Shown here in pieces: positions 4,621 to 60,759 of a stretch of 64,000 nucleotides of DNA; position 1 is the stretch's first letter, and each line of letters begins with the position of its first letter. The notes below the pieces were generated by a model, which was given only the letters and a program-made list of their open reading frames with translations, searched no databases and was not told where the DNA came from. The translations under genes were made by a program, and so were the position numbers. This DNA is from Nannocystis bainbridge (GTDB lineage Bacteria > Myxococcota_A > Polyangia > Nannocystales > Nannocystaceae), in NCBI RefSeq assembly GCF_028368995.1, contig NZ_JAQNDL010000002.1:737724-801723 (forward strand), given 5' to 3'.

Positions 4621-4675
4621 GGGGCTGTCCGATCGGCCAGGTTCGCGGGGGCAGGTGCTTTGAAGCAGGCGCAAA

Positions 4676-4701
4676 GGGACATGTTCGTCAGAACATGTCC
4701 C
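4676..4701. repeat. perfect hairpin GGGACATGTTC-GTCA-GAACATGTCCC (repeat family member) between co-directional genes
   Basis: 11-bp perfect inverted repeat with a 4-nt loop. Located between the end of the DUF4388 gene and the start of the PduO gene. Confidence 0.7.
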
Positions 4702-5639: not shown

Positions 5640-6024
5640 TATTCGCCTCCCCGTGGCCCACGTGGGCCGCGACCGCGATCGGCGGGACAGCTCCCGCCGG
5701 TGTTGGTCTGGGTACAATACCGCGCCTGCTCATATCTTTGGGACAGGTTCTTCACGCGAGCCTGCGGCGACGCCATCTCAGCCCAGGTTCGTGGGGCCGT
5801 AACGGCATCGCGTGTGTCCCGTCTCACTCGGATTACGAGGTTTGGCGTCCGAACTAGCATCCGCGCTCGCCGGGCAAGCCTGCGGTCAAGGCTTTTCGCC
5901 CGCCACGCTAACACCAGCTTCAGAAGAAAGCTACGTTGGAGACGCCGGGCACGCAGCGCGCTGAGTGCGCAGCGCCGCACCGATCCCTCGGGACCTGCCG
6001 GTCGAGTCTGTCTCGCGTCTGGCA

Positions 6025-7323
6025 TCACCGCAGCAGGGCGTAGGCCGACGTCATCAGCAAATTCGCGATCGCCAAAGGCATCGCGGTTCGCTCGAGAAAG
6101 TTGAGAGCAGCGCGCGCACGCGAGCCGGTGACCGCCGCGTGAAGCCGCTGCACGAGCCATACGACGGCAGCGATCTTCGCCGTCGCCACGACTGCGCTGA
6201 TGAACAGCACCACGCCGTGGCTGCTGCCCGTCAGCGTCGCGGCGGGCAGACCACCGCCGAGGAAACAGGCGACGAACGCAGCGGCGAAGGCCCAGCGCTC
6301 GAGTCGTGTCGACGGCGGCGCGGCGGCGACCGCGAGCGCGACGGCTGCGGCGATCGGTTGCACGAAAATTCCCCAGGCGGGGGGGATCGCAGCGCTGCCG
6401 ACGAGGGCCGTCGCTTGCTCCCCCACGAGATGCCGTGGATCGAGGGTGCCAAAGGCCAGCAAAGGGCCGGCGAATGCGGCGGCGAGGGCGAGGTCGCGCG
6501 ACGCGAGCCGACGCGCCACCGCGGTCCGCTCGGCGAGGCGAGCGAGACCCGCGAGCACGAGGGCCACGAGGTAGACGAGCCAGCCCTCGCCCACGGCCAT
6601 CAGCGACAGCGGGACACCGCCCCGCCCGACGGCGCACTGCTCGACGTCCGCCGCGGAGAGGCTGCGACCGACAGCGTCGAGGCATAACCCCGGACCGAAC
6701 GGGAACAGCGCGACGACGGCGATCAGCGGCAGCCATGAGGTCCAGGCGAACCGCGTACGCCGCGTCGAGAACCACCCCAGCGCGACGAGCGCGAGCAGCA
6801 ACCCGGTACGAAGCGCGGTGCGGCGTAGATCGCCTGCGAGGTCGGGCTGCTCGTAGCGGAGCTCGACGATCTGGGGCGCCTCACCCGCTGCGAAGAGGAG
6901 GCGGGCGCTGCCGGAGCGAGCCGCGCCGCCGCGGGTGAAGTGATCGCGGTCGACGCGGAGGCGCAGGCTCACGGCCCCGCCGGCAGCGATCTCCCGCGGG
7001 TACTCGCGGTTCTCGATGGCGAAGGCGCCCCAGTCGGGCGTGCGCGTGTCGAACCGGATCCGCGACAGCGGCACGGTCGCCTCGCCGTGATTCACGAGGC
7101 GCAGCTCGAGTCGCTCGGCGGCGGGAGTGAACACGAGCGACCCGGGCTCGGCGCGCACGCCGGCGAGCGGGGTGCCGCAGCCGAGCGTGAGCGCGAGGAG
7201 GGCGAGGCAGGGAAGGGCACGCGTGGCGCCACGCGACGGCGACGAGACGATGCGCGGCGAGGAGTCGTGCTCGCCGATGGGGGGCACGGTACCTGCGTCG
7301 GGTCTCGTCGGTGCGCACGTCAT
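6025..7323 (-). CDS. lipoprotein-signal-containing polytopic membrane protein (periplasmic beta-rich domain + ~8 TM helices), function unknown
   Basis: A lipobox LALLALTLGC follows ATG 7323, though the n-region is long and the true start may be an internal GTG. ~140-aa soluble domain, then hydrophobic helices to the C-terminus. The 834-aa ORF-track call (6025..8529) is a composite that overlaps the macro-domain gene in another frame. Confidence 0.5.
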   Translation of the reverse strand: MTCAPTRPDAGTVPPIGEHDSSPRIVSSPSRGATRALPCLALLALTLGCGTPLAGVRAEPGSLVFTPAAERLELRLVNHGEATVPLSRIRFDTRTPDWGAFAIENREYPREIAAGGAVSLRLRVDRDHFTRGGAARSGSARLLFAAGEAPQIVELRYEQPDLAGDLRRTALRTGLLLALVALGWFSTRRTRFAWTSWLPLIAVVALFPFGPGLCLDAVGRSLSAADVEQCAVGRGGVPLSLMAVGEGWLVYLVALVLAGLARLAERTAVARRLASRDLALAAAFAGPLLAFGTLDPRHLVGEQATALVGSAAIPPAWGIFVQPIAAAVALAVAAAPPSTRLERWAFAAAFVACFLGGGLPAATLTGSSHGVVLFISAVVATAKIAAVVWLVQRLHAAVTGSRARAALNFLERTAMPLAIANLLMTSAYALLR

Positions 7324-7460
7324 GGCGAGCGCAGACGGGGCGAGGTTGATCTTCCTGGCGAGCGCGGACGCGTGGGTCGCCGCGAAGTTGTCGGTCGCGG
7401 CGGTGAGGGTCATGTCGAGCGCGGACTCCATGACGAGCGTGCGTGCAGTGTTGTTGTCGA

Positions 7461-7640
7461 CACCGCGATGCACTTCGGGCTCGATGACACCGCGATGCAC
7501 TGCGAGCTCGTCGAGGCCGCGATGCGCCTCGGACACGACGAGACCGCGATGCACTGCGAGCTCGACGCCACCGCGATGCACTGCGAGCTCGTCGATACCG
7601 CGAGGCAATTCGAGCGCGACGCCACCGAGGCTCGCCTCGA
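7461..7640. repeat. 27-bp direct tandem repeat x ~6.5 (consensus CACCGCGATGCACTGCGAGCTCGTCGA)
   Basis: Units at 7461, 7488, 7515, 7542, 7569 and 7596. The period of 27 nt is 9 codons. On the minus strand it reads ELAVHRG-type 9-aa repeats, open in the frame upstream of the 6025-7323 gene. Confidence 0.7.
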
Positions 7641-7727
7641 TCTCGACCTGCGGCATCATGAGCACGAGCATATCGTCGCCGCGGCTCGCCGACGCGGGCG
7701 TAGGCGAGGCAGCGGCGCGCGGGCGGC

Positions 7728-8081
7728 TCATGGTGCGCGGGTCAGCGAGGGCCAGGCGATCGCGGTCGCCAGGCCGAGCAGACCGAGGCCGGCGGCGCTG
7801 ACCCAGAGAGCAGGTCCTTCGGGACATGTCGTACTGGACAGGCAGACCGCGGCGGTCGGCGCGAACAGGACCAGGGCCAGCGCGAGGGCGAAGCCGAGGC
7901 CGGCCAGCGCCAGCAGACCGCCGGTGTCGACGGGCTGACGCGGACGCAGCCGGACCAGACCCTCGCCCGCATCGGACCCCGGCGCGGCTTGCTGCTTGGC
8001 GTGGGCGCGGACGAGACCCGCGAGGACAACGACGAGCCCGACGGCTGCGACGAGCGGCAGATAGTCGAGCAGGGGTCCCAT
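7728..8081 (-). CDS. possible small membrane protein (117 aa, 3 predicted TM)
   Basis: ATG 8081 directly abuts the TAG of the macro-domain gene at 8082-8084 (coupling). Hydrophobic segments LPLVAAVGLVVVLAGLV, LLALAGLGFALALALVLF, LWVSAAGLGLLGLATAIAW. The ORF contains a copy of the palindromic repeat (encoding STTCPEGP), so it may be spurious. Confidence 0.3.
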   Translation of the reverse strand: MGPLLDYLPLVAAVGLVVVLAGLVRAHAKQQAAPGSDAGEGLVRLRPRQPVDTGGLLALAGLGFALALALVLFAPTAAVCLSSTTCPEGPALWVSAAGLGLLGLATAIAWPSLTRAP

Positions 8082-17806: not shown

Positions 17807-18688
17807 TCAGGGGTTCTCCGGGGTGTGAGAGGGATGCAGGAGGGTCACCCGCAGGAGCGTCTTCAGGCGCGCGTTGGCGACCCGCTTGCCGACCGCGGCC
17901 GGACCCGGCGGTCGCTCCCACCGCGGCGGCGGTCGGCCAGCGAGGGCGGCCAGGCGGGCGAAGATCTCGCGCCGCGGCGTGTGGTCGTCGTCGACGACGT
18001 TGACGACCCCGCGCTGCTCGGGCTCCAGGGCCAGGGCAGCGAGGACCGCCTGCACGGCGTCGTCCCGGTGGACGAGGTTGGTCGGCTGCATGCCGTCGCC
18101 GGGGAGGACGGCGTCCTCGCCAGCGCCGCGGTACAGGCGGAACAGCTCGCGGCCCGGACCATAGAGGCCGGCGAGGCGGAGGATCGTCCACGGCAGGTCG
18201 TGGCGGGTGCAGGTGTCGCGCACGAGCTCCTCGGCCTCGCGCTGGACCCGGCCGCGCGGCTCGTCGGGCCAGTCGGCGCAGTCGTCGTCGAGCCAGGCGT
18301 CGCGGTCGGGCAGGGCCGAGGTCGAGGAGACGTAGACGAGGCGCGTCGGTCGCAGCATCACCGCTGCCGCGAGCAGGCGGCGGGTGCCCTCGACGTAGAG
18401 CTCGCGGCGGTCCTGCTGCTTGCCGGGGGCGTAGCAGACGACCAGCGCGCGCGCGCCGGCGAGGGTCGCGGCGATGTCGGCGGGGGCGAGCGCGGCGACG
18501 TCGAGCGGGCGGACCTGGATGCCCTCGGGGACATGTCCGTTGGGCCATGTCCCGGAGCGCGAGGTCGCAAGGACAGGTGAGCCGCCGACGCCCGCCGGGT
18601 CCGCGAGCGCGGCGGCCACGGGGGCGCCGAGGAAACCGGCGCCGACGACGGCGATCGGGCGGGCGATCGGGGACGCGCCGGTGGGCAC
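17807..18688 (-). CDS. NAD(P)-binding epimerase/dehydratase-like protein (atypical SDR)
   Basis: IAVVGAGFLGAPVAAAL Rossmann motif 14 nt after the upstream gene stop. GTG start proposed. The C-terminal part matches the NmrA/epimerase fold. It carries an in-frame copy of the palindromic repeat at 18527-18555, encoding SGTWPNGHVPEG. Confidence 0.55.
   Translation of the reverse strand: MPTGASPIARPIAVVGAGFLGAPVAAALADPAGVGGSPVLATSRSGTWPNGHVPEGIQVRPLDVAALAPADIAATLAGARALVVCYAPGKQQDRRELYVEGTRRLLAAAVMLRPTRLVYVSSTSALPDRDAWLDDDCADWPDEPRGRVQREAEELVRDTCTRHDLPWTILRLAGLYGPGRELFRLYRGAGEDAVLPGDGMQPTNLVHRDDAVQAVLAALALEPEQRGVVNVVDDDHTPRREIFARLAALAGRPPPRWERPPGPAAVGKRVANARLKTLLRVTLLHPSHTPENP
18527..18555. repeat. 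GGGGACATGTCC-GTTGG-GCCATGTCCCGG palindromic repeat copy lying in-frame inside the coding sequence
   Basis: Same core as the intergenic repeat family. It translates in the epimerase frame as ...TSRSGTWPNGHVPEGIQV... in the loop after the Rossmann beta2 position. Confidence 0.6.
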
Positions 18689-20346: not shown

Positions 20347-20427
20347 AGGACATGTCCGAAGGGGCATGCCTGAAGGGACATGCCCGTCACGACATGCCCG
20401 TCACGACATGTCCTTCAGGACTCGCGG
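20345..20427. repeat. cluster of five GGACATGTCC / GGGCATGCC palindromic units forming a large nested hairpin between convergent genes
   Basis: GAAGGACATGTCC GAAGGGGCATGCC TGAAGGGACATGCCC GTCACGACATGCCC GTCACGACATGTCCTTCAGGAC. The outer arms TGAAGGACATGTC / GACATGTCCTTCA are perfect complements. Confidence 0.75.
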
Positions 20428-22348: not shown

Positions 22349-23446
22349 CTAAGGCGAGCACTTCAGCGTGCTGCCGAGGATGGTCGAGGTCGCGTTGCCG
22401 CCGTGCGAGCTCTTGATCTTGGTCACCTGGTAGTAGACCGACTTGGCGATGCCGAAGTCGGCGAGCGGGCCGAGGGCGATCCGCGGGTCCGCGCCGTCGA
22501 GCTCGATGGCGACGGCGGGGTTCGAGCACGGGAAGCCGCCGGCGTCGGTCGAGGCCCCCAGCGTAAACGCGGTGGCCTTGGCGGTCGGGTTGCCGGTGCG
22601 CAGCTTGCAGAACGCGTCGGCGTCGGCCTGGTCGCAGCCGGACGGGCCGCCCCACGAGCAGGTGCCGGCGCAGTACAGCTGCGTGACCTGCGAGAAGTCG
22701 AAGATGCAGTCCTCGGTGCAGCCGACGCCCATGAACGGGGCGGCGCCGTCGCAGAACTCGAAGCCCTTGGGGTTGTTGATGTCGACCTTGTCGACGGTCC
22801 CGTCGCCGCAGTGCGGGCCGAGCTTGCTGCAGCCGGGGGCGCAGCCGTTGTAGTCGTTGTCGTTGAAGCCGTCGTCGCAGACCTCGACGCCCTCCCAGAG
22901 GATGCCGTCGCCGCACACCGCGGCGACACAACCCTCGAGGCACGCGTCTTCGTCCTCGTCGTTGGCGTCGTCGCACTCCTCGCCAGGCTGGGTCCAGCCG
23001 TCGCCGCACACGGGCAGCAGACACTCGGCAGTACAGCTGTCGGTGTTCTCGCGGTTGCCGTCGTCGCAGTCCTCGCCCTCGTGCTGGATGCCGTCGCCGC
23101 ACTCGGGCAGGCGGCACAGCGAGGTGCAGCTGTCGAAGTCATTGGTGTTGCCGTCGTCGCAGGCCTCGCTGCCCTCGAGCACACCGTTGCCGCACTCGTG
23201 GGCCGGATCGGTCGTGGAGGAGGTGGGCTCGCTGGTCGGGCCCTGCGAGGTGTTGCTGGTGCCCTCGCTCGGATCGCTGGACGCAGTGCCGTCGGTCTCG
23301 GTGGTCGGATGCCCGGTGACGGTCTGGATCCCGGTGCCTTCGTCTTCGGTGGTCGAACCGGTGGTCGACGTCGGCTCCGCGGTGGGGTTGTTGTTCTGCG
23401 TCGGCGTGCAGGCCGCGAGCGCCAGCATCCATCCTAATCTGCGCAT
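22349..23446 (-). CDS. lipoprotein with Myxococcus cysteine-rich repeats
   Basis: Signal and lipobox [13 protein letters not shown]. Thr/Ser-rich linker. Repeated C-G-[ND]-G-x5-E-x-CDDGN modules ([80 protein letters not shown]) match the myxobacterial cysteine-rich repeat family. Confidence 0.75.
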
Positions 23447-23609
23447 AACCGAACGTTAGGCCGGGCAGTGCGCGATTGCAAGCGTGATTGCCGCGCCTGC
23501 TTGAAGCATCGACGCGAAACGACGATCGGAGCGCAACTCCGCGCCGACCCAAAACGAAGGGCCCGGATGTCACGAGGACATCGCGGGCCCTTGCGCGCGT
23601 GATCGCAGC

Positions 23610-28967: not shown

Positions 28968-29050
28968 GGGAGTGGCGAATGGGACATGTCGCATCGGGCA
29001 TGTCGAATGGGCCATGTCTTTGAGAACATGCTCATGGAGGCATGTCCTTT
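28968..29050. repeat. cluster of palindromic repeat units (GGGACATGTCG / GGGCATGTCG / GGCCATGTC / GGCATGTCC) between co-directional genes
   Basis: Several CATG-centred half-sites with GGG/CCC flanks within 80 nt, between the peptidase M28 start and the M3 peptidase stop. Confidence 0.65.
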
Positions 29051-29072: not shown

Positions 29073-30779
29073 TCAGAGGTCGAGGAGCTCGCGGCAGGCG
29101 GCGGCGGTCCGGCTCACGGTGCCGCGGTCGGTGCCGAACTGCAGGCCGGCGGCGGCGAACAGGTCGGGCAGGCGGGCGCGGGCGCCGAGGCCGAGGGCGC
29201 GGCGGAGGTCGGCGACGGCGGCGGCGGGCTCGGCGAGGGCGCGGCGGTGCAGCTGGACGGCGCCGAGGCCGGCGATCGCGTACTCGATGTAATAAAAGGG
29301 CAGCTCGAACACGTGAAGGCGGCGCTGCCACAGGGCAGCGCGGTCGGCCTCGAGGCCGCTCCAGTCGACGCCGGGGCACAGGCGCTCGTGCTGCGCTCGC
29401 CAGGCGGCGTCGCGGGCCCGGCGATCGCGGGCGGCGTCGGGGTGGGTATAGACCCAGTGCTGGAAGGCGTCGATGGCGGCGGCGAGCGGGAGGAACAGGA
29501 CGAGCTGTTCGAGCTGGTGGCGGGCCGCGAGGGCGCAGGTGTCGGCGTCGTAAAAGGCGCGCAGGTGAGGGGCGGCGAGCAGCTCCATGCCCATGCCGGC
29601 GACCTCGCAGAATTCGATCGGCGGGCGGCGGTTCCAGATCAGCGGGTCGGCGGCGCAGGCGAGGGCGTGGAAGGCGTGGCCGCCCTCGTGGAGGACGGTG
29701 AGCAGGTCCTCGTGGCGGCCGACGGCGCCGGCGAACACGAACGGGAGGCCGCTGGCGTGGAGGTGGACCTGGAAGGCGCCGACGGCCTTGCCTGGCCTTG
29801 ACATCATGTCCAAAAGGCCATGTTCGGCGAGGCGGGAGAACTGGCGGGCGAACTCGGGGTCGACGGCCTCGAAGGCGCGAGCGCAGCCGGCGACGAGCTC
29901 TTCCTCGCGGGTGAAGGGGGCGAGCGGGCCGCCGGTCATGACGGCGAGGTCCCACGGGCGCAGGCCGGCGAGGCCGAGCGAGGCGGCGCGGCGGCGGAGG
30001 ACCCGAGCGGCGAGCGGGCCGAACTCGGCGGCGATGGCGTCGTGAAGGGCGAGGCAGTCGGCGGGGCCGTAGGCGAGGCGGTCGAGGCGGCGGAAGCGAT
30101 AGGCGCGGTAGTCGGGCAGCTCGGCGGCGGCGGCCTGGGCGGTGCGGTTGTCGAGGAGGCGGTCGAACAGGTGATCGAGCTCGGGCTTCACGGCGCGAAA
30201 ACCGGCGGCGACGGTGCGCCAGGCGGCCTCGCGGCGATCCCGGTCGGGTTCGTCCTCGCCGCGCTCGACCCGGGCCAGCGGGACGTCGGCGCCGTCCCAG
30301 TGGAAGCGCATGCCAGCGCGCAGCTGGCCATAGGCGGCGCACAGGTGCAGCTCGGCGGCCTCGAGCGGGACCAGGGCGGGGCGGTAGAGGTCGGCGCGGT
30401 TGCGCAGGACGGCGAGGGCGCAGGCGTGGCCGGGAGGCAGGCGCGCGGCGGCCGGATGAGCGGCAAGTCGTTGTGCGAGGGCGTGGCGCAGCGGCTCGCA
30501 GGCAGGACCGAGGACGTCGACGTGGACGTGCCAGGCGCGCGCGGCCTCGAGGTCGTCGGCGCTGCAGCTGGTCTCGATCTGCCGCCGCGCCTGGACCTCG
30601 GCGAGGTGACTCTCGAGCTCGGACCAGTCGCGCAGCCACTGCCCCAGAGTCCACGGGTCGTCGAGCGGCAGGGGTCGCTCGCCGAGCTCGCCGTAGCATG
30701 CCTCGAGGTCGGCGAGCCGATCGAGGCGCACGCCGGCGGGCAAGTAGCGCCGCGGCGGCGGCGGGAGCGAGCCAAACAC
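29073..30779 (-). CDS. M3-family oligoendopeptidase (PepF-like)
   Basis: 568 aa. HEGGHAFH zinc-binding HExxH motif at the conserved position, with the downstream E expected of the M3B family. Confidence 0.8.
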   Translation of the reverse strand: MFGSLPPPPRRYLPAGVRLDRLADLEACYGELGERPLPLDDPWTLGQWLRDWSELESHLAEVQARRQIETSCSADDLEAARAWHVHVDVLGPACEPLRHALAQRLAAHPAAARLPPGHACALAVLRNRADLYRPALVPLEAAELHLCAAYGQLRAGMRFHWDGADVPLARVERGEDEPDRDRREAAWRTVAAGFRAVKPELDHLFDRLLDNRTAQAAAAELPDYRAYRFRRLDRLAYGPADCLALHDAIAAEFGPLAARVLRRRAASLGLAGLRPWDLAVMTGGPLAPFTREEELVAGCARAFEAVDPEFARQFSRLAEHGLLDMMSRPGKAVGAFQVHLHASGLPFVFAGAVGRHEDLLTVLHEGGHAFHALACAADPLIWNRRPPIEFCEVAGMGMELLAAPHLRAFYDADTCALAARHQLEQLVLFLPLAAAIDAFQHWVYTHPDAARDRRARDAAWRAQHERLCPGVDWSGLEADRAALWQRRLHVFELPFYYIEYAIAGLGAVQLHRRALAEPAAAVADLRRALGLGARARLPDLFAAAGLQFGTDRGTVSRTAAACRELLDL

Positions 30780-31357
30780 GCGGGCGAGGGTAGCACCGCG
30801 GAGGGCCCACGCTGGTGGTCCGCGGAATCGCTCGGGGGGTGCGGCCCCACGTCGAGGTCGCCGCCGAAATCAGGCTGGTCGAAGGGACAGGTCCGTCGTG
30901 GCGCAGGCCGCGGGTGACGACGCCGATCGTGCGGTCGTTGTCGTCGTCCCACGGGCGACCGGGCAGGATCGCCAGGCGTCGCCGTCGAGGGTGCCGAGCA
31001 AGATCCGCAGCACGGTCTCCGGTCGTCGGATGACGGCGAGCAACTCGGGGACGCTGTGGCGAGCGCTGTGGTGAAGCACCGTCGCTCGCGGCTCCGGGCG
31101 GAGCGGGACCTCTTGCAGGAAGATCCGCGGGGCCGGCACTTGGCGGAGACGTGTGGGCCGAGCGCTGGCGCTTAGCGACCTGGTCCTGGGTACAGGCGAC
31201 GCGGAGAGGCTCGGCGATCCATCCGGTGCGGTGGTCCGCGGGTGGAGAGTGGGCGGGCCTGAGCTCGTGCTGCTCGGGCCCGACATGCACGACGGCGGGT
31301 GGGCGCCGCCCGCCCGATCGTTGCGGGCCCACGCGACGCGATGGTCTCGCGGCGCGG

Positions 31358-32604: not shown

Positions 32605-32700
32605 GGGGGCATGTCCGAAGGGGCATGCCCTTTTGTTTATGCCCGATCGGCCATGTTCGTTCGGACATGCGCTTGCGAGCATGTCCTGAAGGTCATGGCC
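32605..32700. repeat. cluster of palindromic repeat units (GGGGCATGTCC GAAGGGGCATGCCC ... CGGACATGCGC ... GCATGTCCTGAAGGTCATGGCC) between convergent genes
   Basis: It runs from the stop of the dienelactone hydrolase gene to the stop codon of the minus-strand PepSY_TM gene. It contains GGGCATG....CATGCCC inverted repeats. Confidence 0.7.
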
Positions 32701-35728: not shown

Positions 35729-37225
35729 TCAGGCCCGCCGGGCCGCAGCGGTCGCCCATGCCCGCAGGGCCGCGATTTCGCCGGCACGGCTGTGACTGAG
35801 CGGGATCGTCGCGGAGAGCGCGCGAGCGAGGTCGTGGCGCGCGAGGGGTCGCGACTCGGCGAACGCGTCGAGCCGAGCTTCCACGATCGCGCCCTCGATC
35901 TCGGCGCCGGACAGTCCGTCGGCCGCGCGTACGAGGTCGACCAGGTCGGGCAACGGATCAGCGAGCACCGGGGCGGCGCCCATGTGCGAGCGCGGCGCAT
36001 GTTCGAGATGGATCTCCGCGATGGCGGCGCGTTCGTCCGCGTCCGGCACATCGACAAAGAAGATCTCGTCGAGCCGCCCGCGACGGGTCAGCTCGGGCGG
36101 CAATCGCGTGACCTGGTTGGCCGTGGCGACCACGAACACCGGCCGCCGGCGCTCCTGCAGCCACGTGAGCAGCCCGCCGAGCACGCGCGCCGCGGTGCCC
36201 GCGTCGCTGGCACCACCGTCGCTGCCGGCCAGGCCCTTGTCGAGCTCGTCGATCCACAGGGCGACCGGGGCGATGCGCTCGACCGTATCGGTGACGCGGC
36301 GCAGGTTGGCCTCGCTCTCGCCGAGGGTGCCGCCGTAGAGCCGCCCGGGCTCGAGGCGCAGCAGGCCGAGGCCGAGCGCGTGGGCGCAGACGCGGGCGGC
36401 CAGGCTCTTGCCGCAGCCCTGCACGCCGACCAGCAGGACGCCGCGCGGGTCGGGGATGCCGGCGGCGCGGGCCTCGGGGCGGAGCGCGAGGGCGCGGCGG
36501 GCCAGCCACTGCTTGAGCTGCGCGAGCCCGCCGAGCATGTCCGAAGCGACAGGTTCGACGCGCTCGAGCAGACCTCCGCGTCGCAGCAGCTCGGCCTTGC
36601 CCGCGGACAGCTCGGCGAGCGCGCCGGGGTCGTCGGCGACGTGGGCCGCGCGTCGCAGCAGGCGCCGCGCCTGGTGCTCGGACAGGCCGAGCGCGGCGTG
36701 GGCCAGCAGCGGGGCCCGGCTCGCGAGCGCGATCGCGGGGCCAGGACGGCCGGCGATCCGCAGCTCGTCGGCGAGGTCGGCGGCGAGGCCGGCGAGCTCG
36801 TCGGCGTCGGGCAGCTCGAGCTCGACGAGCTCGAGCTCGGGGATGGCGACGACGGCGCCGGCGAGCTCCCCGACGACGACGACGGCCGGGCCGACGCTGC
36901 GCTGGGCGAGCTCGCGGAGGGCCCGCAGGGCGACGGGGTCGAGCGGGGGCGGATCGAGGAGCACCCACAGGCCGGGGTCGGGGTCGCGCAGGAGGCCGCG
37001 CAGGAGCTCGACCAGCGGCTCGGGGGCGCCGAGGCCGTCGCGCCCGCCGGCCGCGCTCCAGGTGTGCACCGGCCAGTCGAGCCGATCGCCGACGTCCTCG
37101 CACAGCCGCACCGCCCGCGCCTCGTCGACGGCGCGCAGCCCGAGGCCGCGCGCGCCGGCCTGCAGCGCCTCGCGCAGGCGCTGCCGGGCGCGCGCGAAGG
37201 GGGTGTCCTTCGGGTCATGTCTCAT
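35729..37225 (-). CDS. AAA-family ATPase with ~250-aa N-terminal domain of unknown function
   Basis: Walker A GVLLVGVQGCGKS, Walker B ALWIDELD, sensor/second region of homology VVATANQVTRLPPELTRRGRLDE. The first codons (MRHDPKD) are encoded by a palindromic repeat copy, so the start is uncertain. Confidence 0.7.
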   Translation of the reverse strand: MRHDPKDTPFARARQRLREALQAGARGLGLRAVDEARAVRLCEDVGDRLDWPVHTWSAAGGRDGLGAPEPLVELLRGLLRDPDPGLWVLLDPPPLDPVALRALRELAQRSVGPAVVVVGELAGAVVAIPELELVELELPDADELAGLAADLADELRIAGRPGPAIALASRAPLLAHAALGLSEHQARRLLRRAAHVADDPGALAELSAGKAELLRRGGLLERVEPVASDMLGGLAQLKQWLARRALALRPEARAAGIPDPRGVLLVGVQGCGKSLAARVCAHALGLGLLRLEPGRLYGGTLGESEANLRRVTDTVERIAPVALWIDELDKGLAGSDGGASDAGTAARVLGGLLTWLQERRRPVFVVATANQVTRLPPELTRRGRLDEIFFVDVPDADERAAIAEIHLEHAPRSHMGAAPVLADPLPDLVDLVRAADGLSGAEIEGAIVEARLDAFAESRPLARHDLARALSATIPLSHSRAGEIAALRAWATAAARRA

Positions 37226-37320
37226 GGAGCATGTCCCTCGGACCCTGTCATCCGCGCGGCGAACCGGGTGTCCTTCGGGTCATGTCTCATGGAGCATGTC
37301 CCTGGGACCATGCCATCCAC
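37201..37320. repeat. tandem duplication (2 x ~59 bp) of a palindromic-repeat-containing unit GGGTGTCCTTCGGGTCATGTCTCATGGAGCATGTCCC[T/-]GGGAC...
   Basis: Near-identical copies at 37201-37260 and 37261-37320. Copy 1 contains the AAA ATPase start codon. Copy 2 encodes the last 13 codons (…AWMAWSQGHAP) of the upstream hypothetical gene. Confidence 0.75.
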
Positions 37321-38033
37321 GCGGCGAGCAGGTGGCCCTGGGCGGCGACCGAGACCGGGCCGTCGTCGGCGAAGCAGAAGCCGTTCAGCCACAGGCGGGC
37401 GCCGCGGAGGCGGGCGAGGCGGCCGTGCAGCAGCGCGAGGTCGCCGGCGCAGGCGCGGGCGAGGGCGGCGCGCGGGCGGGGCGGGAGCGTGTCTGGCCAA
37501 AAGGACAGGCGGTAAGCGGGCTTGCCGTCGACGCGGAGGACGTCGAGCCGCAGCGCGCCGCTCGGATCGGCGGCGACGAGCTGGGCGCGGCGCAGCAGGT
37601 CGGGGAACGGTCGCGCCCGCGAGCCGCGGAAGTCGAGGGCGAAGAACACCGGCGCGGCGGCGGAGCCGGGGAGGGCGCGGGTGAGGCCGCGGGCGAGGGC
37701 GCGAGCGACCGCCTCGAGCGCGCCCGGGACCTGGGGCAGGGTCAGGAGGCCGGCGGTCGCGGCGGGCGTGCCGGCGGCCGCCAGGGCGGCGACGACGGCC
37801 CGCAGGCGGCCGGGGGCGCGCGGGCCCAGGGCGACGAGGCGAGCGACCGCGAGGTCGTCCGGCGCGTCACGGGCGAGCAGGTCGTCGAGCTCGCGCAGGG
37901 CCTCGGCGGCGTCGCCGACGTCGGGCGGGGCGGAGGGCACGAGCCAGAGGTGCGGGGCGGGCTCGTCACGGGCGCGGTCGAGGGCCGCGAGGGTGTCCGA
38001 TGGGACAGGTCCGTCGGAGCCCCGACCGCTCAC
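37287..38033 (-). CDS. hypothetical protein
   Basis: 248 aa. Its ATG at 38033 overlaps the smpB stop. Ala/Leu-rich with no motif. The C-terminus reads into the tandem repeat. Confidence 0.4.
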   Translation of the reverse strand: MSGRGSDGPVPSDTLAALDRARDEPAPHLWLVPSAPPDVGDAAEALRELDDLLARDAPDDLAVARLVALGPRAPGRLRAVVAALAAAGTPAATAGLLTLPQVPGALEAVARALARGLTRALPGSAAAPVFFALDFRGSRARPFPDLLRRAQLVAADPSGALRLDVLRVDGKPAYRLSFWPDTLPPRPRAALARACAGDLALLHGRLARLRGARLWLNGFCFADDGPVSVAAQGHLLAAWMAWSQGHAP

Positions 38034-38509
38034 GTCCGCTCCCGAATGGCCCGATCGATCTCACGCTTCTGCTCGCGCTCCTTGATCGAGGCGCGCTTGT
38101 CGTAGGTCTTCTTGCCGCGGCACAGCGCCAGCTCGAGCTTGATCCGGCCGTTGCGAGCGACCATCGACAGCGGGATCAGCGTGAGCCCGGCCTTGTCGAC
38201 GGACTCGGCCAGGTGCTCGAGCTCCTTGCGGTGCAGCAGTAGCTTGCGCGGGCGCAGCGGCAGGTGGTTGCGGTCGTGCGCCTGCGTGTACTCGCCGATG
38301 TGCGATTGATAGAGGAACAGCTGGTCGCCCTGGAACTGGCAGTACGACTCGCCGAGGCTGACGCGGCCGTCGCGGATCGACTTGACCTCGCTGCCCATGA
38401 GCATGAGGCCGGCCTCGTAGCGCTCGAGGACCTCGTACTCAAAGGTGGCACGGCGGTTTTGAACGAAGAGGTGGCCGTCCTTCGTCGCGGTCTTGTCGGT
38501 CTTCTTCAC
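38030..38509 (-). CDS. smpB: SsrA-binding protein
   Basis: 159 aa. FVQNRRATFEYEVLERYEAGLMLMGSEVKSIR... and the C-terminal basic tail KRASIKEREQKREIDRAIRER are typical SmpB. Confidence 0.9.
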   Translation of the reverse strand: MKKTDKTATKDGHLFVQNRRATFEYEVLERYEAGLMLMGSEVKSIRDGRVSLGESYCQFQGDQLFLYQSHIGEYTQAHDRNHLPLRPRKLLLHRKELEHLAESVDKAGLTLIPLSMVARNGRIKLELALCRGKKTYDKRASIKEREQKREIDRAIRERT

Positions 38510-43744: not shown

Positions 43745-44833
43745 ATGGTGGCCCTCCTCGAGCTGGTCGAATCGATCGCGCTGCGCGTGGACGCCGAAGG
43801 TCGCGTGACCGCGGCGTCGCCCGCCGCGGCCCGCTGGCTGGCCGCGCGGACCGGGGCGCCCGGCCTCGGCGCGCTGTTCGGCGCGGCGTCGCCGGAGTCG
43901 CTGCGCGGCCTGGTCGAGAGCGGCGGCAAGGCGGTGCCCGCAGAGCCATGGCCCGAAGGACCTGTCGTATGGGACCTGTCCTTGGAGCCATCCGACGCGG
44001 TGCTGGCGGTCGGGGTGGCGATCCGCCCGGCGCGGGCGCTGGCGTCGCAGCTGGCGAGCGCGACGCTGCTCGACAAGAGCCTGGCGCTGGCGGTCCTGCC
44101 GCGTGAGGCGGCGGCGCCGCTGGGCGAGCGGCTCCAGCCCAAGGCGTACCGCGAGGCGACGGTGATGTTCATCGACGCGGTCCAGTTCTCGCGCCTGGCC
44201 GCCCGCGTCGACCCGGTCACCTGCCTCAAGCAGCTCGATTTCTTCTTCTCGGCCTTCGACCAGATCACCTCGGCGTTCGTGGTCGAGAAGCTGCGCACGG
44301 CCGGCGACACCTACGTGGCGGTGTCGGGGATCCCCCAGCGCCGCCTGTCCCACGCGGTCGACGCGACGTTCGCGGCGCTGCGCTGCGCCCAGGTGGTCGC
44401 GTCGGGGCTGACACCGATGGTCGACGAGTGGGACTGGAGCTTCCGCATCGGCCTCCACTCGGGGCCCTGCATCTCCGGCGTGCTCGGCTCGAAGAAGCCG
44501 GTCTACGACCTGTGGGGCGACACGGTCAGCGTCGCCAGCCACGTCGAGCGCATCGGCCAGCCCGACTCGGTGTGCGTGTCGGGGGCCGTCCGCCAGCTGA
44601 TCGAGCCGTTCTTCGCGCTCGAGTTCATGCAGACGACGGTGACCCGCAGCGTCGGCGAGATCGAGGTGTTCGCGGTCCGCGGGCTGCTCCCCGAGCTGCA
44701 GGCCGACGGCCAGGCGCTGGTCGCCAACGCGGAGTTCGCCGAGCGCTACGAGTCGCGCTTCGGCACGCCGTGCCCGGCCGCCGCGCTCGAGGCGCTCGGG
44801 GTCGAGCTCGGACAAGGGCTCGAAGACTTCTGA
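43745..44833 (+). CDS. class III adenylate/guanylate cyclase with ~130-aa N-terminal domain of unknown function
   Basis: Start 2 nt after the upstream stop. Cyclase motifs ATVMFIDAVQFSRL, KLRTAGDTYVAVSG, IGLHSGPCISGVLGSKKPVYDLWGDTV. The N-terminal domain contains a degenerate palindromic-repeat copy (43946-43992, encoding WPEGPVVWDLSLEP). Confidence 0.8.
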   Translation: MVALLELVESIALRVDAEGRVTAASPAAARWLAARTGAPGLGALFGAASPESLRGLVESGGKAVPAEPWPEGPVVWDLSLEPSDAVLAVGVAIRPARALASQLASATLLDKSLALAVLPREAAAPLGERLQPKAYREATVMFIDAVQFSRLAARVDPVTCLKQLDFFFSAFDQITSAFVVEKLRTAGDTYVAVSGIPQRRLSHAVDATFAALRCAQVVASGLTPMVDEWDWSFRIGLHSGPCISGVLGSKKPVYDLWGDTVSVASHVERIGQPDSVCVSGAVRQLIEPFFALEFMQTTVTRSVGEIEVFAVRGLLPELQADGQALVANAEFAERYESRFGTPCPAAALEALGVELGQGLEDF

Positions 44834-44847
44834 GCGGTGGGATGGCT

Positions 44848-44915
44848 GATCGGGCATGTCCGAAGGGGCATGCCCGTCGGGCAATGTCGTCGAGGACATG
44901 TCCTCGAGTTCAGGC
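44848..44915. repeat. palindromic repeat cluster (GGGCATGTCC GAAGGGGCATGCCC ... GGACATGTCC) 3' of the cyclase gene
   Basis: GGGCATG...CATGCCC inverted repeat plus a GAGGACATGTCCTC perfect palindrome. Between convergent gene ends. Confidence 0.7.
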
Positions 44916-45058: not shown

Positions 45059-45643
45059 TCAATCGCGGCGGTAGTCCTTGAACAGGTAGGCGTAAAAGCC
45101 GACGACCTCGCGTAGCAGCGACCACGGCTCGCGCAGCTCGAGGTCGAGCTCGGCGTGGGCGGCGGTGGCCTCGACGCCGAAGCGACGCAGGGCCAGCTTG
45201 GTGCGGGTGAGGTGGTAGTACTGGCTGACGGCGATGGCGGAGCGCTCGCCGCGGGCGCGCAGGTCGGCGGCGACGAAGCGGGCGGTGGCGTGGGTGTTGA
45301 CGCCGCCGCGGTCGACGGCGATGCGCTCGGCCGGGACGCCGCGGGCCACCAGGTAGTCGCGCATGACGTCGGCCTCGTGCGGGCTGCCGGGGTCCTGGCC
45401 GCCGCTGACGATGAGCCGCGGGACCAGGCCGGCGGCGTAGAGCTCGGCGGCGCGATCGAGGCGCAGCTGTAGGCGGCGCGCGGGCTCGCCGGCGGGGCTG
45501 ACGTGGTTGCCGAGCACGACGGCGACGTCGGCGGGGCGGCCCTCGTCGGTGCAGCCGTCGACGCTCAGGACGAGCAGGTGCACCAGGCCCCAGGTGCACA
45601 GCAGGGCGAGAAGGCGGAGGATGGTCTTTCGCACATGTGCCAT
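45059..45643 (-). CDS. DUF218 / YdcF-ElyC-SanA family protein
   Basis: ATG 45643 (MAHVRKTILRLLALL...) with N-terminal TM. DVAVVLGNHVSPAGEP...LIVSGG... matches the DUF218 core. The ORF-track start MRTCRM is encoded by a repeat copy. Confidence 0.7.
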   Translation of the reverse strand: MAHVRKTILRLLALLCTWGLVHLLVLSVDGCTDEGRPADVAVVLGNHVSPAGEPARRLQLRLDRAAELYAAGLVPRLIVSGGQDPGSPHEADVMRDYLVARGVPAERIAVDRGGVNTHATARFVAADLRARGERSAIAVSQYYHLTRTKLALRRFGVEATAAHAELDLELREPWSLLREVVGFYAYLFKDYRRD

Positions 45644-45654
45644 GCGACATGTCC

Positions 45655-46620
45655 TCATGGACCTGTGATGGTCGCGGCGGGCGGGCGCACGGCCAGGCAG
45701 GTGAGCTGGGCCGAGTCGGGGGCGTAGCGGAAGCCGGCGTGGGCGGCCAGGAGGCGGCGCACGTAGCCGTGGAGGCGCTCCGGTCGCATGGGCCGCGAGG
45801 CGACGCCGGCGGCCCCGGTGGTGTCGAACACGCGCACGCGGCCGAGGCGATCGCGGGCGGGGTCGACGATCATCATGTGATGGTACATGCGCTCGCCACC
45901 GCGGGCACGGGCGCGGTGCGAGACGCTGCAGAGATGAAGGGCGTCGGCTGCGAGGGCGGCGAGCAGGCCGGCGGCGCCGAGGCTATCGAGGCGAAGGTCG
46001 AGCAGGTCGAGGCCGCGTGGGAGGGCGCCGGCGGGCAGGCGCGCTGCGATCTGGAGGAGGGCGGCGCGGCCGGCGTGGGCGCCGTCCTGGCACGACTCGA
46101 AGCCGCCGGGCGGATCGCAGGGGACGAGGTCGGCGAGCTCGAGCCGCGGCAGCCACAACAGGCGCACGCCCTCGAGGAAGCCGCCGAGGCAGCCGAGGTC
46201 GTATGTCCCCGGGGACAGCTTGATGGGGCGACCGGCGTCGGTGCGGCAGAAGCCCGCGGGCTCGCCGAGGCGGATGTGCCCGAGGCGCTCCCAGGCGTCG
46301 ATCTCGGCCCAGCGATCCGGCTCGAAGGCGAGTTCGAGGCCGCGGAAGACGCCGGCGGGGTCGCGCGCGCGCAGGGCCGCTGCGAGCGCGGGCGGGACGC
46401 GCGGGTAGTGGGCGAGCGAGGGCCAGCGCGTGAGCAAGTCAGCGTCGCGGGGGTCGACGGGCTCGCGGTGCACGGACGGGCGCGCCGGGGCGCCGGGGAC
46501 GGGCGCTGGCTCGACGCCGGGAGGGAGGTCGGCGGGCGCATCCGGAGCGGTCGGCTCGCCGCAGGTCAGCGCGGCGGTCAGGCCAGCGGAGAGCAGCTGC
46601 GACCGGCCCATCGGACGCAT
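45655..46620 (-). CDS. hypothetical secreted protein / lipoprotein
   Basis: N-terminal LLSAGLTAALTC signal/lipobox-like segment. 321 aa. No motif recognised. Confidence 0.4.
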   Translation of the reverse strand: MRPMGRSQLLSAGLTAALTCGEPTAPDAPADLPPGVEPAPVPGAPARPSVHREPVDPRDADLLTRWPSLAHYPRVPPALAAALRARDPAGVFRGLELAFEPDRWAEIDAWERLGHIRLGEPAGFCRTDAGRPIKLSPGTYDLGCLGGFLEGVRLLWLPRLELADLVPCDPPGGFESCQDGAHAGRAALLQIAARLPAGALPRGLDLLDLRLDSLGAAGLLAALAADALHLCSVSHRARARGGERMYHHMMIVDPARDRLGRVRVFDTTGAAGVASRPMRPERLHGYVRRLLAAHAGFRYAPDSAQLTCLAVRPPAATITGP

Positions 46621-53699: not shown

Positions 53700-53875
53700 C
53701 AGGACATGGCCGAAGGGTCATGTCCGCCGAGGCGCGCCCGAGCGGCAGGGGAGCGCCCGACCGCGCTCGCGGCGGTCGCATCCTCGCCAAGAAAATGCCC
53801 CGCGAGTCGGCTGACTCGTGGGGCATGTCGAAAAGAGCAGGTCCCTTCGGGCATGTCGTGAAGGACATGCCCCAA
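53700..53875. repeat. palindromic repeat cluster plus hairpin CCCCGCGAGTC-GGCT-GACTCGTGGGG between convergent genes
   Basis: Contains GGACATGGCCGAAGGGTCATGTCC, GGGGCATGTCG, CCCTTCGGGCATGTCG and GAAGGACATGCCCC modules. Confidence 0.7.
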
Positions 53876-56961: not shown

Positions 56962-58068
56962 ATGGCCGAGCGCGACCCCGAAACCAACGTGGCCCTCGGC
57001 GAGGGCAAGCTGACGTTCCCGTGCGAGCAGTGCGGTTCGGCCCTCGAATACTCGCCCGGATCGGACCACCTGCGCTGCAGCCACTGCGGTCACACGCAGA
57101 CGATCGGCGGCGAGAAGGCGGTCCTGGAACATGACTTTCAGGACATGTTGCACCGGCTGTCGCGCGCGCCGGCGTCGACGCTGGGCGGGCACAGCATCCA
57201 GTGCGAGGGGTGCGGGGCGCAGGCGATGCTGGCGGGCCAGGCCGGCCGCTGCGCCTTCTGCGGCGCGCCGGTGGTGATGGACGTGAAGGAGCTGGGCGAG
57301 ATCGTGCCGCCCGAGTCGCTGCTGCCGTTCGGCATCGACGGCGCCAAGGCGCGCGAGGCGTTCTCGAGCTGGGTGCGCAAGCTGTGGTTCGCGCCGAACG
57401 ACCTCAAGCGGCTGGCGCAGGTCCACGGCATCGACGGGGTGTACCTGCCGTACTGGACCTACGACTCGCAGACGACGACCCGCTACAAGGGGCTGCGCGG
57501 CGATCACTACTACGTGACCGAGTCGTACAACGACGCGCAGGGCAACCGCCAGACGCGGCAGGTGCAGAAGACGCGCTGGCGCCCGGCGAGCGGGACCGTG
57601 CATGTCGGCTTCGACGACGTGCTGGTGTGCGGGTCGCCGTCGCTGCCGCGGCCGCTCATCGAGAAGCTCGAGCCGTGGGACCTCGACAACCTGCGCGGCT
57701 TCGAGGCCGGTTACCTGAGCGGCTTCATCGCCGAGCGCTACCAGATCGGGCTCGAGGACGGGTTCCAGATCGCCGACGAGCGCATGCAGCCGGAGATCCG
57801 CGGGGCCATCCGCAGCGACATCGGCGGCGACGTGCAGCAGATCCTATCGATGAACGTCCGCCACGCGGACGTGAAGTGCAAGCACGTGCTGCTGCCGCTG
57901 TGGATCTCGAGCTTCCGCTACAAGGAGAAGGTGTTCCGCTTCATCGTCAACGCGCGCACCGGCGAGGTCGCGGGCGAGCGGCCGTGGAGCGTGGTCAAGA
58001 TCGTGCTGACGGTCCTGCTGGTGGCGGCGGTGATCGCGGCGATCGTGGTGATCGCAAAGTCGCGCTGA
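56962..58068 (+). CDS. multi-zinc-ribbon protein with C-terminal TM anchor, function unknown
   Basis: CEQCGS...CSHCGH and CEGCGA...CAFCGAP Cys pairs. C-terminal WSVVKIVLTVLLVAAVIAAIVVIA helix. 368 aa, normal composition. Confidence 0.55.
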   Translation: MAERDPETNVALGEGKLTFPCEQCGSALEYSPGSDHLRCSHCGHTQTIGGEKAVLEHDFQDMLHRLSRAPASTLGGHSIQCEGCGAQAMLAGQAGRCAFCGAPVVMDVKELGEIVPPESLLPFGIDGAKAREAFSSWVRKLWFAPNDLKRLAQVHGIDGVYLPYWTYDSQTTTRYKGLRGDHYYVTESYNDAQGNRQTRQVQKTRWRPASGTVHVGFDDVLVCGSPSLPRPLIEKLEPWDLDNLRGFEAGYLSGFIAERYQIGLEDGFQIADERMQPEIRGAIRSDIGGDVQQILSMNVRHADVKCKHVLLPLWISSFRYKEKVFRFIVNARTGEVAGERPWSVVKIVLTVLLVAAVIAAIVVIAKSR

Positions 58069-59904: not shown

Positions 59905-60759
59905 CTACGCGGGGACGAAGCAGGCGCCGCTGCTCTCGAAGCCGGGGGCGGGGGCGGGGAACAGGGGCTCGCAAAGGGAGGGCGATGCGCACTGCGCGTC
60001 GCCCTCTTTCGTGTCGCAGGTCGAGGTGCAGCAGTTGCTCGAGCCGCAGTTCGGCACCAGCGCGCCCGGCATGCACACGTACGTGGCCGCGCAGCCGCGA
60101 CCGGTGAACTCCGAGCAGTTGGCGCCCTCGGTGCCCATGTCGACCTCGAGCATCATCTCGCAGATGAATCGATCCTTGCCCTGTCGACAGCCGAGTCCCG
60201 GCGGACAGATGGCCACGATCGGATCACAGCTGTCCGCGCAGTAGGTCGTGCCGCTGAACGGGCTGGTGGTGCACAGGCCCGGCTCGCAGTCGATGTCGTT
60301 GCGGCAGATCGGGAAACAGAGGCCCGAGGTCGGATCGCCGTCGGTCAGCGAGAGGCACACGGTCCCGGCACCGCACGCGTCCTGCCCGCTCTCGGGCGCG
60401 GGCGTGCACACCTCGAGCGGGAGCAGCGCGCCGTCGTCGGGCACGCACTTGAAGTGGTTCTGCAGGCCGCCCTCGCTGACGGCGGTGCACTTCTGTCCTT
60501 CGGGACATGCGGGGGTGCCGGACGGTTCACAGTCGAAGACCGGGGTGAGGTCCGGCGGCGGCTCGGACACGCCCGTGGTCGGATCGCTGTCGCTCAGGCC
60601 CTCGCTGTCTCCGCCGTCACTGTCGCTGTCGCCCTGGTTGCCCGCGCTGTCGTCGTCGTCGTAGGGGACGCGCTGACATGCTCCAAAGGACAGGAACGCG
60701 AGGACAGTCGCGAGGCGAGCGGCGGCGACGCCGGGGCGGCGAGGGTGGGCGTCGAGCAT
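59905..60759 (-). CDS. Cys-rich secreted lipoprotein
   Basis: Signal MLDAHPRRPGVAAARLATVLAFLSFGAC (lipobox). Asp/Ser-rich linker. ~30 Cys in the mature part with repeated C-x-P-G / CxxxxC spacing. Two segments (CPEGQKC, SFGACQ) coincide with palindromic-repeat-like DNA. Confidence 0.55.
   Translation of the reverse strand: MLDAHPRRPGVAAARLATVLAFLSFGACQRVPYDDDDSAGNQGDSDSDGGDSEGLSDSDPTTGVSEPPPDLTPVFDCEPSGTPACPEGQKCTAVSEGGLQNHFKCVPDDGALLPLEVCTPAPESGQDACGAGTVCLSLTDGDPTSGLCFPICRNDIDCEPGLCTTSPFSGTTYCADSCDPIVAICPPGLGCRQGKDRFICEMMLEVDMGTEGANCSEFTGRGCAATYVCMPGALVPNCGSSNCCTSTCDTKEGDAQCASPSLCEPLFPAPAPGFESSGACFVPA

Follow-up and report, generated by a model that had tools for sequence, protein, structure and literature searches.

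The Rickettsia palindromic elements (RPEs) are elements of ~100-150 bp that insert into genes and add a peptide segment that the orthologues do not have (PMC10969869). The uptake signal sequences (USS) and DNA uptake sequences (DUS) of Pasteurellaceae and Neisseriaceae gather in coding regions by substitution, at positions where the protein tolerates it, and raise the frequency of the encoded peptides (Findlay and Redfield 2009, PMC2817400). Sites of the cyanobacterial palindrome HIP1 (GCGATCGC) are conserved in and between open reading frames (ORFs) beyond the need of the codons, which has been taken as selection on DNA (Xu, Lawrence and Durand 2018, PMC5861425), and HIP1 has also been linked to methyltransferases (PMC4390886). 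In this study, these systems, as well as the repetitive extragenic palindromes (REPs) and bacterial interspersed mosaic elements (BIMEs) of proteobacteria, are compared with a short palindromic repeat found in a 64,000-nt stretch of the genome of the myxobacterium Nannocystis bainbridge (contig NZ_JAQNDL010000002.1, positions 737,724 to 801,723; G+C content ~71%), referred to below as the window. One copy of the repeat (18527..18555) is located within a gene of the NAD-dependent epimerase/dehydratase family.

A preliminary description of this DNA had interpreted the epimerase copy as a selfish, RPE-like insertion that adds a peptide segment to the protein. This interpretation fails for the epimerase copy, since its site is gapless in the orthologues and the distant ones encode the same loop with ordinary codons. 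In our view, the copy is probably a REP-like element superimposed on the coding sequence (CDS) and held there by pressure acting at the nucleotide level.

The repeat copy in the epimerase gene

The flagged copy (GGGGACATGTCCGTTGGGCCATGTCCCGG) is located on the minus strand and consists of two units, GGACATGTCC at position 18529 and GGCCATGTCC at position 18543, placed 14 nt apart. Its presence and sequence were borne out as originally described, and the proposed in-frame translation, SRSGTWPNGHVPEGIQV, is correct. The coding strand reads GGG ACA TGG CCC AAC GGA CAT GTC CCC (G-T-W-P-N-G-H-V-P), which corresponds to residues 46-54 of the epimerase.

The repeat family to which this copy belongs is real. 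Its units, of the consensus sequence GGRCATGYCC, recur strictly every 14 nt, with 4 nt of A/T-rich spacer between them. The rigid register of the 10-nt unit results in tandem arrays (of 2-7 units in the window), in which any adjacent pair of units is able to form a hairpin. The sequence GGACATGTCC, with one mismatch at most, occurs 26 times in the window, compared with 1.7 expected occurrences. In order to score individual copies, we used a weight matrix built on 43 units from 14 intergenic arrays, in which the CATG core is 96-97% conserved; the pair score is the sum of the matrix scores at two positions 14 nt apart. The flagged copy has a pair score of 29.1, and the maximum obtained in 30 dinucleotide shuffles of the window was 14.5.

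A scan of other loci detected the family in most of those from the Nannocystis group (the exceptions being L004, L005 and L086); the remaining myxobacterial loci and the outgroup loci that were scanned had no copy. A scan of the whole window at the Rfam gathering threshold revealed no matching family. We found no description of a Nannocystis palindromic repeat in the literature, and our search turned up no paper on an uptake-type motif in this genus. The literature matches for GGACATGTCC are mainly papers on p53 response elements, with no bacterial ones among them.

The host gene (17807..18688, minus strand) encodes a protein of 293 aa and is intact. The ORF matches the Pfam family Epimerase (E=3e-14), its product is 100% identical to the annotated N. 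bainbridge protein and is of full length relative to the aligned homologs, and the G+C content at third codon positions (GC3) is ~0.95 on either side of the copy. The AlphaFold model of the protein has a predicted local distance difference test score (pLDDT) of 92. In the model, residues 44-56 (SRSGTWPNGHVPE) form an ordered, non-helical loop, which leads from beta2 (residues 39-43) to beta3 (57-61). The copy is therefore predicted to lie in the loop following the Rossmann beta2 strand, as had been suggested, i.e. at a surface-exposed, structurally tolerant site of an intact protein, which is where an RPE would be expected.

The preliminary description proposed that orthologues be compared for a lineage-specific indel. 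None was found: more than 60 homologs, ranging from 85% down to ~30% identity, can be aligned over the epimerase site without a gap. The beta2-beta3 loop is gapless in 40 homologs, down to 50% identity, with W48 and P54 conserved at a level of 90% or more. The homologs from Planctomycetota (30-39% identity) contain a loop segment of equal length, and those from Xanthomonadales (33-36%), as well as the protein of PDB entry 3gpi, are shorter by 3-4 residues, not by 8-10. The distant myxobacterial orthologues encode a loop of the type G-x-W-[RP]-[DE]-G-x-x-P using ordinary, GC-ending codons and without CATG, e.g. TGG CGC GAG GGC CCC GTG CCC in L012 and ACC TGG CCC GAC GGG ACC CCG CCC in L027. The ancestral-type peptide with ordinary codons was identified in L011-L014, L017, L019, L023 and L027. 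The alignments show that the epimerase copy is not an insertion; it appears superimposed on pre-existing codons of the loop, the length of which is unchanged.

The nucleotide sequence of the copy was also examined with respect to codon choice. Its codons ACA, GGA and CAT constitute only 6%, 4% and 12%, respectively, of their codon families in the window, and synonymous resampling gave P=1.5e-5 for the copy given its peptide. For interspecies comparison we used four other Nannocystis species (L001, L002, L003 and L015), whose epimerases share ~85% protein identity, with ~22% of the identical residues synonymously changed. All three rare codons are kept in each of these four, and two of the three in L006, an orthologue of 60% identity from a metagenome-assembled genome (MAG). 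Among the 16 other A/T-ending codons of the epimerase gene, 2-6 are kept in the four species (0-6 when L006 is counted). All differences among the five species are located in the spacer or the flanks (CCC/CCG, AAC/AAT/CAA and CCC/CCG/CCA), with none in the 20 unit positions, and L006 still contains GGA CAT GTC CCC. These nucleotide sequences show that the match to the repeat depends on codon choice, rather than being a by-product of the peptide, and is conserved across species. Since rare codons have been chosen and kept, the DNA or its transcript would be under a sequence-specific pressure of its own, separate from the function of the protein.

Some of the orthologues have peculiarities of their own. 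In L006 (6109-6132), the pair lies one unit further downstream than in the window (GGACATGTCC ccga GGACATTCAG). The first unit of the window copy has disappeared there, GCC standing in place of ACA, and a weak additional unit covers E-D-I. The epimerase gene of L010, a more distant Nannocystis MAG, carries another intragenic pair (GGCATGTCT attg GGACATGTCG; L010:6291-6314, score 29.2), which is placed in the loop preceding beta4 and not in the beta2-beta3 loop. We considered this second copy as a possible proof of insertion and rejected it, because L008, which has no repeat there, contains a loop of the same length. In L015 (N. pusilla Na p29, 6001-6860), the length of the epimerase match is no multiple of three and the frame is lost downstream in the codon alignment, a sign of either a frameshift or an error in the assembly; within the motif region the reading frame is kept.

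Copies in other coding sequences

The pair scan revealed five copies clearly located within CDSs, at positions 18529, 57127, 43944-43981, 29802 and 36533. Those at 57127-57150, 29802-29825 and 36533-36556 are additional to the ones noted previously. The first of these two-unit copies (GAACATGACT ttca GGACATGTTG; 57127..57150, plus strand) is located in a gene for a zinc-ribbon protein (56962-58068), where it encodes E-H-D-F-Q-D-M-L. Residues E56 and D58 are invariant family-wide, and the alignment has no gap at the copy. The orthologues of this gene range from an absent to a full motif through point substitutions at constant length: GAG CAC GAC TTC GAG GCG ATG in L090 and L089 (scores of -4.8 and -4.3), a score of 18.4 in L087, GAG CAT GAC TTC GAG GAC ATG in L088 (21.7), and GAA CAT GAC TTT CAG GAC ATG TTG in the window (28.0). 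The second copy (29802..29825, minus strand; E-H-G-L-L-D-M) is located in the gene for oligoendopeptidase F (PepF, peptidase M3; 29073-30869). The respective segment, EHGLLDMMSRPGKA, can be aligned without gaps to EHELMDLVAKKGKA of the oligoendopeptidase F of Geobacillus (PDB 2h1j). The third (36533..36556, minus strand) is located in a gene for an AAA ATPase (35729-37279), upstream of the AAA domain.

The further in-frame copies that had been claimed fared unequally. The one in a cyclase gene is present and, with three units, is larger than stated (see below). The one assigned to positions 60486-60510, in a gene for a Cys-rich lipoprotein (59905-60759), is a partial copy of only ~1.5 units (CATGTCCCGAAGGACA; 60494..60509, minus strand; A-C-P-E-G-Q). 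It failed the pair test, and CATGTCCCGAAGGACA is an exact unit-spacer-unit junction, with 17 matches in the window compared with 0.06 expected; given the peptide, the copy is weakly improbable (P ~0.004). The encoded A-C-P-E-G-Q-K-C overlies the family motif C-P-x-G-x-K-C, with no gap. At 7811-7845 the DNA copy is significant (score 22.4) and was found to be a degenerate member of two to three units (GAGCAGGTCC ttcg GGACATGTCG tact GGACAGGCAG; 7808..7845, minus strand). The ORF that contains it (7728-8081) is weakly supported, having a GC3 of 0.81, no Pfam match and a product that is a singleton "hypothetical protein". One more two-unit copy (45631-45654) is located 1 nt past the stop codon of the gene at 45655-46620 (minus strand); it overlaps the predicted 5' end of the ORF at 45059-45658 (minus strand), whose start is uncertain.

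To judge from the gapless alignments, the zinc-ribbon, PepF and lipoprotein copies add no residues to their proteins. The segments that they cover are native, and the idea that the repeat creates peptide insertions in other proteins has to be abandoned for them.

The exception is the gene for an adenylate/guanylate cyclase (43745..44833, plus strand), which hosts a three-unit copy (AGCCATGGCC cgaa GGACCTGTCG tatg GGACCTGTCC ttgg; 43944..43985, plus strand) in the part encoding the N-terminal domain. Its units, at 43944, 43958 and 43972, follow the 14-nt register (pair score 24.0) and encode E-P-W-P-E-G-P-V-V-W-D-L-S. Five orthologues retain GAA GGA CCT and both GGACCTGTC units but differ in the spacer and in the amino acid that it encodes. 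The orthologues of the clade with at least 64% identity, which carries the copy, are longer than those of the clade with at most 56%, and the MAFFT alignment contains gaps of 14+2 residues between them; the extra residues do not match the units neatly and their boundaries are ambiguous. An insertion at this site is possible. The difference in length of ~14 codons coincides with the copy, as an RPE-like event would predict, but its direction is not set by any outgroup. The heptanucleotide GAGCCAT, present at 43943 and 43985 (42 nt apart), was considered as a target-site duplication and rejected as a coincidence, because it is not conserved in L081-L085.

In order to estimate how many copies would occur in genes without any preference for the repeat, all 45.4 kb of CDSs in the window were synonymously resampled. 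The observed number of in-CDS pairs was 5, compared with 0.10 expected. In the count by spacing there were 4 pairs at 14 nt (0.21 expected) and none at spacings of 10-13 and 15-20 nt. Single units are not enriched in CDSs (20 versus 17.0 expected for scores of at least 9, and 10 versus 6.1 for scores of at least 11), and a general oligonucleotide bias of the HIP1 type was rejected on these grounds. Given their peptides, the individual copies are improbable as well (P<5e-6 for the cyclase, 2e-4 for the zinc-ribbon, 5e-6 for the PepF and 3e-5 for the AAA ATPase copy). In the five cyclase orthologues, 2-4 of the 5 rare codons within the motif are kept, compared with 0 of 11 outside it.

These results bear on the view that native, GC-rich loop-coding sequence resembles the repeat by chance, an alternative also named in the preliminary description. 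The ancestral W-[PR]-[DE]-G-x-x-P peptide of the epimerase already gives a partial match (TGG CCC GAx GGx), and the lipoprotein copy is only weakly improbable. Against this stand the pair score of the flagged copy, which is far outside the range of the shuffles, the rare codons needed for the match (P from 2e-4 to <5e-6) and conserved in 4-5 species, and the five in-CDS pairs, all at exactly 14-nt spacing. Chance is thus a highly improbable explanation, which for the flagged copy may be regarded as effectively refuted; it is possible only for the partial copy at 60494-60509.

The peptides encoded by the copies recur in unrelated proteins as [T/P/A][W/C]P.G[H/P]V and EH...DM. Because 14 is not divisible by three (it leaves a remainder of 2), the codon boundary shifts from one unit to the next, giving CA|TG, CAT|G and C|ATG in turn, a pattern which recurs every 42 nt. 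The same DNA is read in each case and the palindromic unit is alike on both strands, so that any ORF crossing it will give [T/P/A]-[W/C]-P-x-G-[H/P]-V... or E-H-x-x-x-D-M. By this reasoning from the unit sequence, the shared peptides are the motif read in three frames, and a common inserted ORF is not needed to account for them. The same reading is seen at the 3' end of the gene at 37287-38060 (minus strand), whose last 8 codons and stop codon lie within an array (37264..37315). Its terminal sequence, GCA TGG TCC CAG GGA CAT GCT CCA TGA (AWSQGHAP*), is read like TWPNGHVP of the epimerase, and the array may have reshaped the C-terminus of the protein.

There remains the explanation that a mobile palindromic element was inserted in frame, in the epimerase anciently, that its peptide was kept, and that later deletions or ambiguities of alignment mask the change in length. 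It could draw on the units being read alike in unrelated proteins, including the hexapeptide WPEGPV, which the cyclase copy shares with many orthologues of the epimerase, and on the cyclase clade carrying the copy, which is longer by 14 codons, i.e. 42 nt or three units. The gain, loss and resizing of the intergenic arrays among species (described below), the position of the flagged copy in a surface loop and the other copy in a different loop of the L010 orthologue are also in its favor. Nevertheless, we consider it unlikely. The epimerase site is gapless over the whole range of identities, outgroup orthologues use ordinary codons for the W-x-[DE]-G-x-x-P loop, and the loops of L010 and the repeat-less L008 are equally long. 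The zinc-ribbon, PepF and lipoprotein genes have no indel, the residues covered there being invariant in their families, and the zinc-ribbon motif passes from none to full at unchanged length. Finally, the heptanucleotide repeat flanking the cyclase copy is absent from the orthologues, and the copies measure 24-29 nt, as opposed to a 100-150-bp element with its own ORF (PMC10969869).

Intergenic arrays, folding and the probable nucleotide-level pressure

The window contains 22 clusters of the repeat: 5 clearly in CDSs, 1 in the doubtful ORF, 1 (45631-45654) reaching into the predicted 5' end of an ORF, and 15 others. Among these 15 there are 12 that either overlap a facing stop codon or are located no more than 51 nt from one. 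Our ad hoc gene finder truncates gene starts, and only its stop positions were used. Most of the intergenic clusters are placed 1-51 nt from the facing stop codon, or overlap it, between convergent or co-directional genes.

The reference array of 5 units (20348..20413) fills the 68-nt gap separating two convergent stop codons, leaving 2 nt to each. The orthologous sites (L001:4292-4329, L003:4317-4354, L015:4291-4328 and L002 at ~4300) demonstrate that the number of units varies, there being 5, 3, 3, 3 and 0 units in the five species. The empty site, found in N. radixulma, reads GAGTCGTGACGCTCACGCCCCGCGG and is itself a small palindrome (CGTGA..TCACG). The largest array, of ~7 units (32607..32700), is also located between convergent genes. 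Arrays of 5 units (28982..29047) and 4 units (44852..44903) are placed 26 nt and 19 nt downstream of the stop codons of the PepF and cyclase genes, respectively. A further array of 4 units occupies 53821..53872, and a separate two-unit copy (53702..53725) is located 16 nt past a stop codon. The top pair score of the window (34.2) belongs to a copy that forms a perfect 13-bp hairpin (4663..4700) and follows a stop codon at a distance of 16 nt. At 37199-37236 and 37264-37301 there are two copies of 38 nt that are nearly identical (GTCCTTCGGGTCATGTCTCATGGAGCATGTCCCT[C/G]GGACC) and are placed 65 nt apart, as if a two-unit element and its flanks had recently been duplicated on the spot.

The position of the arrays is compatible with the selection of an RNA hairpin, i.e. 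a stem-loop that forms 3' ends, stabilizes the transcript or attenuates transcription, for example for the gene ending 12 nt upstream of the epimerase start. The flagged copy folds with -25.9 kcal/mol (z -4.0), its stem running into the flanks, and the intergenic members, 1-51 nt past stop codons, fold with -21 to -50 kcal/mol (z -4 to -7). Moreover, the epimerase and cyclase copies are located 148 and ~200 nt, respectively, past the stop codon of a tightly abutting upstream gene. We examined whether the intragenic copies could act as terminators of the abutting preceding gene and rejected this, since it fits the epimerase and cyclase copies but fails for the zinc-ribbon gene, which is the first after a divergent upstream gene, and for the PepF and AAA ATPase copies, which are placed mid-gene. 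The zinc-ribbon, PepF and cyclase copies fold no better than shuffled sequences (z -0.9 to -1.9), and a pure hairpin function therefore does not cover all copies. In the outer stem of the epimerase copy, inspected by eye, there is C-G in L001 and L015, G-C in L003 and a mismatch in the window and L002; this single both-sided change among five orthologues is not beyond chance. In the arrays, outer unit positions vary without compensation in the neighboring unit, whereas the CATG core is near-invariant, a combination that fits sequence recognition better than pairing. In view of these points, and of the absence of a matching Rfam family, hairpin selection seems to us a rather doubtful explanation, albeit a stronger one than insertion.

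We therefore return to a REP-like element superimposed on coding sequence. The 29-bp segment is a two-unit member of a Nannocystis-restricted family of REP-like short palindromes, whose usual place is the first ~50 nt past stop codons, where they form hairpin-prone tandem arrays with a unit number varying among species. In the epimerase gene, the copy is overlaid, without a change in length, on the codons of a beta2-beta3 loop older than the motif; the match would have been reached and kept through the choice of ACA, GGA and CAT, which are rare codons, together with some amino acid replacements that the protein tolerates. The source of the sequence-specific pressure on the DNA or transcript is most likely to be the recognition of 14-nt-phased pairs of units by the same putative factor that would read the intergenic arrays. 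Alternatively, the substitutions could have been supplied by templated short-patch conversion from other copies, instead of stepwise mutation. From the pattern of codon conservation, we infer that the pressure may be selection for a binding or structural function.

A more far-reaching proposal, which we put forward only tentatively, is that Nannocystis possesses a sequence-recognition system, in which a putative protein or modification enzyme would read GGRCATGYCC pairs and arrays at the fixed 14-nt phase. Such a system might mark the 3' ends of most transcription units (e.g. as a roadblock/terminator or a nucleoid-organizing site), and would recruit sites in genes by bending the choice of codons, and even of amino acids, in conserved proteins, without insertion.

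Several points weigh against superimposition under nucleotide-level selection. The species compared are few and related, and the counts of conserved codons are not independent. The zinc-ribbon series was sorted by motif score, not by phylogeny, and gain rather than decay is only what we infer from it. The occurrence of WPEGPV in both the cyclase copy and the epimerase orthologues would be expected of an ancient shared insertion too. Between fixed anchors of the cyclase gene, a hand count on the codon listings gives 26 versus 12 codons, a difference equal to three units. The poor folding of the zinc-ribbon, PepF and cyclase copies has to be added here. Finally, motif-biased repair or a conversion drive would leave the same pattern as selection.

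These findings correct an attractive reading: the flagged gene does not provide a second example of protein remodeling of the RPE type. Repeat and protein share the same nucleotides, and across species the repeat prevails at synonymous sites and also at a number of replacement sites. Provided that the pressure is functional, the family gives access to the question of how gene ends are marked in very GC-rich myxobacteria, and its natural arrays and intragenic pairs could be used in the search for the factor reading them. When such genomes are annotated, a cluster of rare codons can point to an embedded DNA element, and not to foreign origin or a sequencing error.

The window also contains repeats of other kinds. 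Five tandem 27-nt units (CGA.ACCGCGATGCACTGCGAGCTCG..), 74-83% alike, are located at 7458-7646, where there is no convincing gene, and adjoin the doubtful ORF at 7728-8081. Three tandem 93-nt (31-codon) repeats (22904-23182) are placed in the ORF at 22349-23455 (minus strand), which looks like a gene for a Cys/Asp-rich repeat protein. Segments of 276 and 174 nt are repeated, with a spacing of 818 nt and 73-75% identity, in the regions 674-1181 and 1492-1999, which are probably tandem paralogous genes. Dense 12-, 15- and 27-nt repeats of the GGTCGTCG/GTGGTCGAC type (61949-62199), within the ORF at 61440-62234 (minus strand), probably encode a low-complexity protein region.

Comparison with described systems

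The Nannocystis copies resemble RPEs in that repeat DNA is read in frame in intact genes, at surface loops, and gives rise to recurring peptides in unrelated proteins. They differ in size (24-42 nt), and in 4 of the 5 cases tested there is no gap and the residues are native. A gap of the length of the element was seen in the orthologues at none of these four sites (the cyclase orthologues differ by 14 codons), and no 100-150-bp element with its own conserved ORF or peptide was found.

With USS and DUS, the family shares the accumulation of copies within CDSs by substitution at tolerant positions, without indels, as observed here. DUS are also frequently arranged as inverted pairs downstream of genes. 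However, USS and DUS are single asymmetric 9-12-mers enriched everywhere, in contrast to the Nannocystis repeat, of which only 14-nt-phased pairs are enriched in CDSs. Furthermore, the reading frame of USS correlates with preferred codons, whereas the Nannocystis copies use rare ones.

HIP1 is likewise a short palindrome occurring far above expectation, with in-gene sites conserved beyond codon usage, and the same was found for the copies described here. By analogy with HIP1, the CATG core could be a methylation site. Unlike the Nannocystis family, HIP1 is a dispersed single octamer, about equally frequent in and between genes; the Nannocystis repeat forms arrays, is concentrated at the 3' ends of genes, and shows no over-representation of single units in CDSs.

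REPs and BIMEs differ from the Nannocystis repeat in several respects: the unit of the latter is only 10 nt long and is arranged in a rigid 14-nt tandem register, its consensus lacks the GTAG-type 5' head that is conserved in REPs, which are associated with genes for REP-associated tyrosine transposases (RAYTs), and about one quarter of the clusters in the window are inside CDSs, with no length added. In common with REPs and BIMEs, the members of the family are short, imperfect stem-loop palindromes, abundant and clustered, which for the most part closely follow a stop codon, in the gaps separating convergent or co-directional genes, and whose copy number at one site varies among related genomes (here 5, 3, 3, 3 and 0). 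The family thus combines the stem-loop palindrome, the extragenic location near stop codons and the site-specific variation in copy number that are characteristic of REPs, with the flagged copy in the epimerase gene as an exception in its location.

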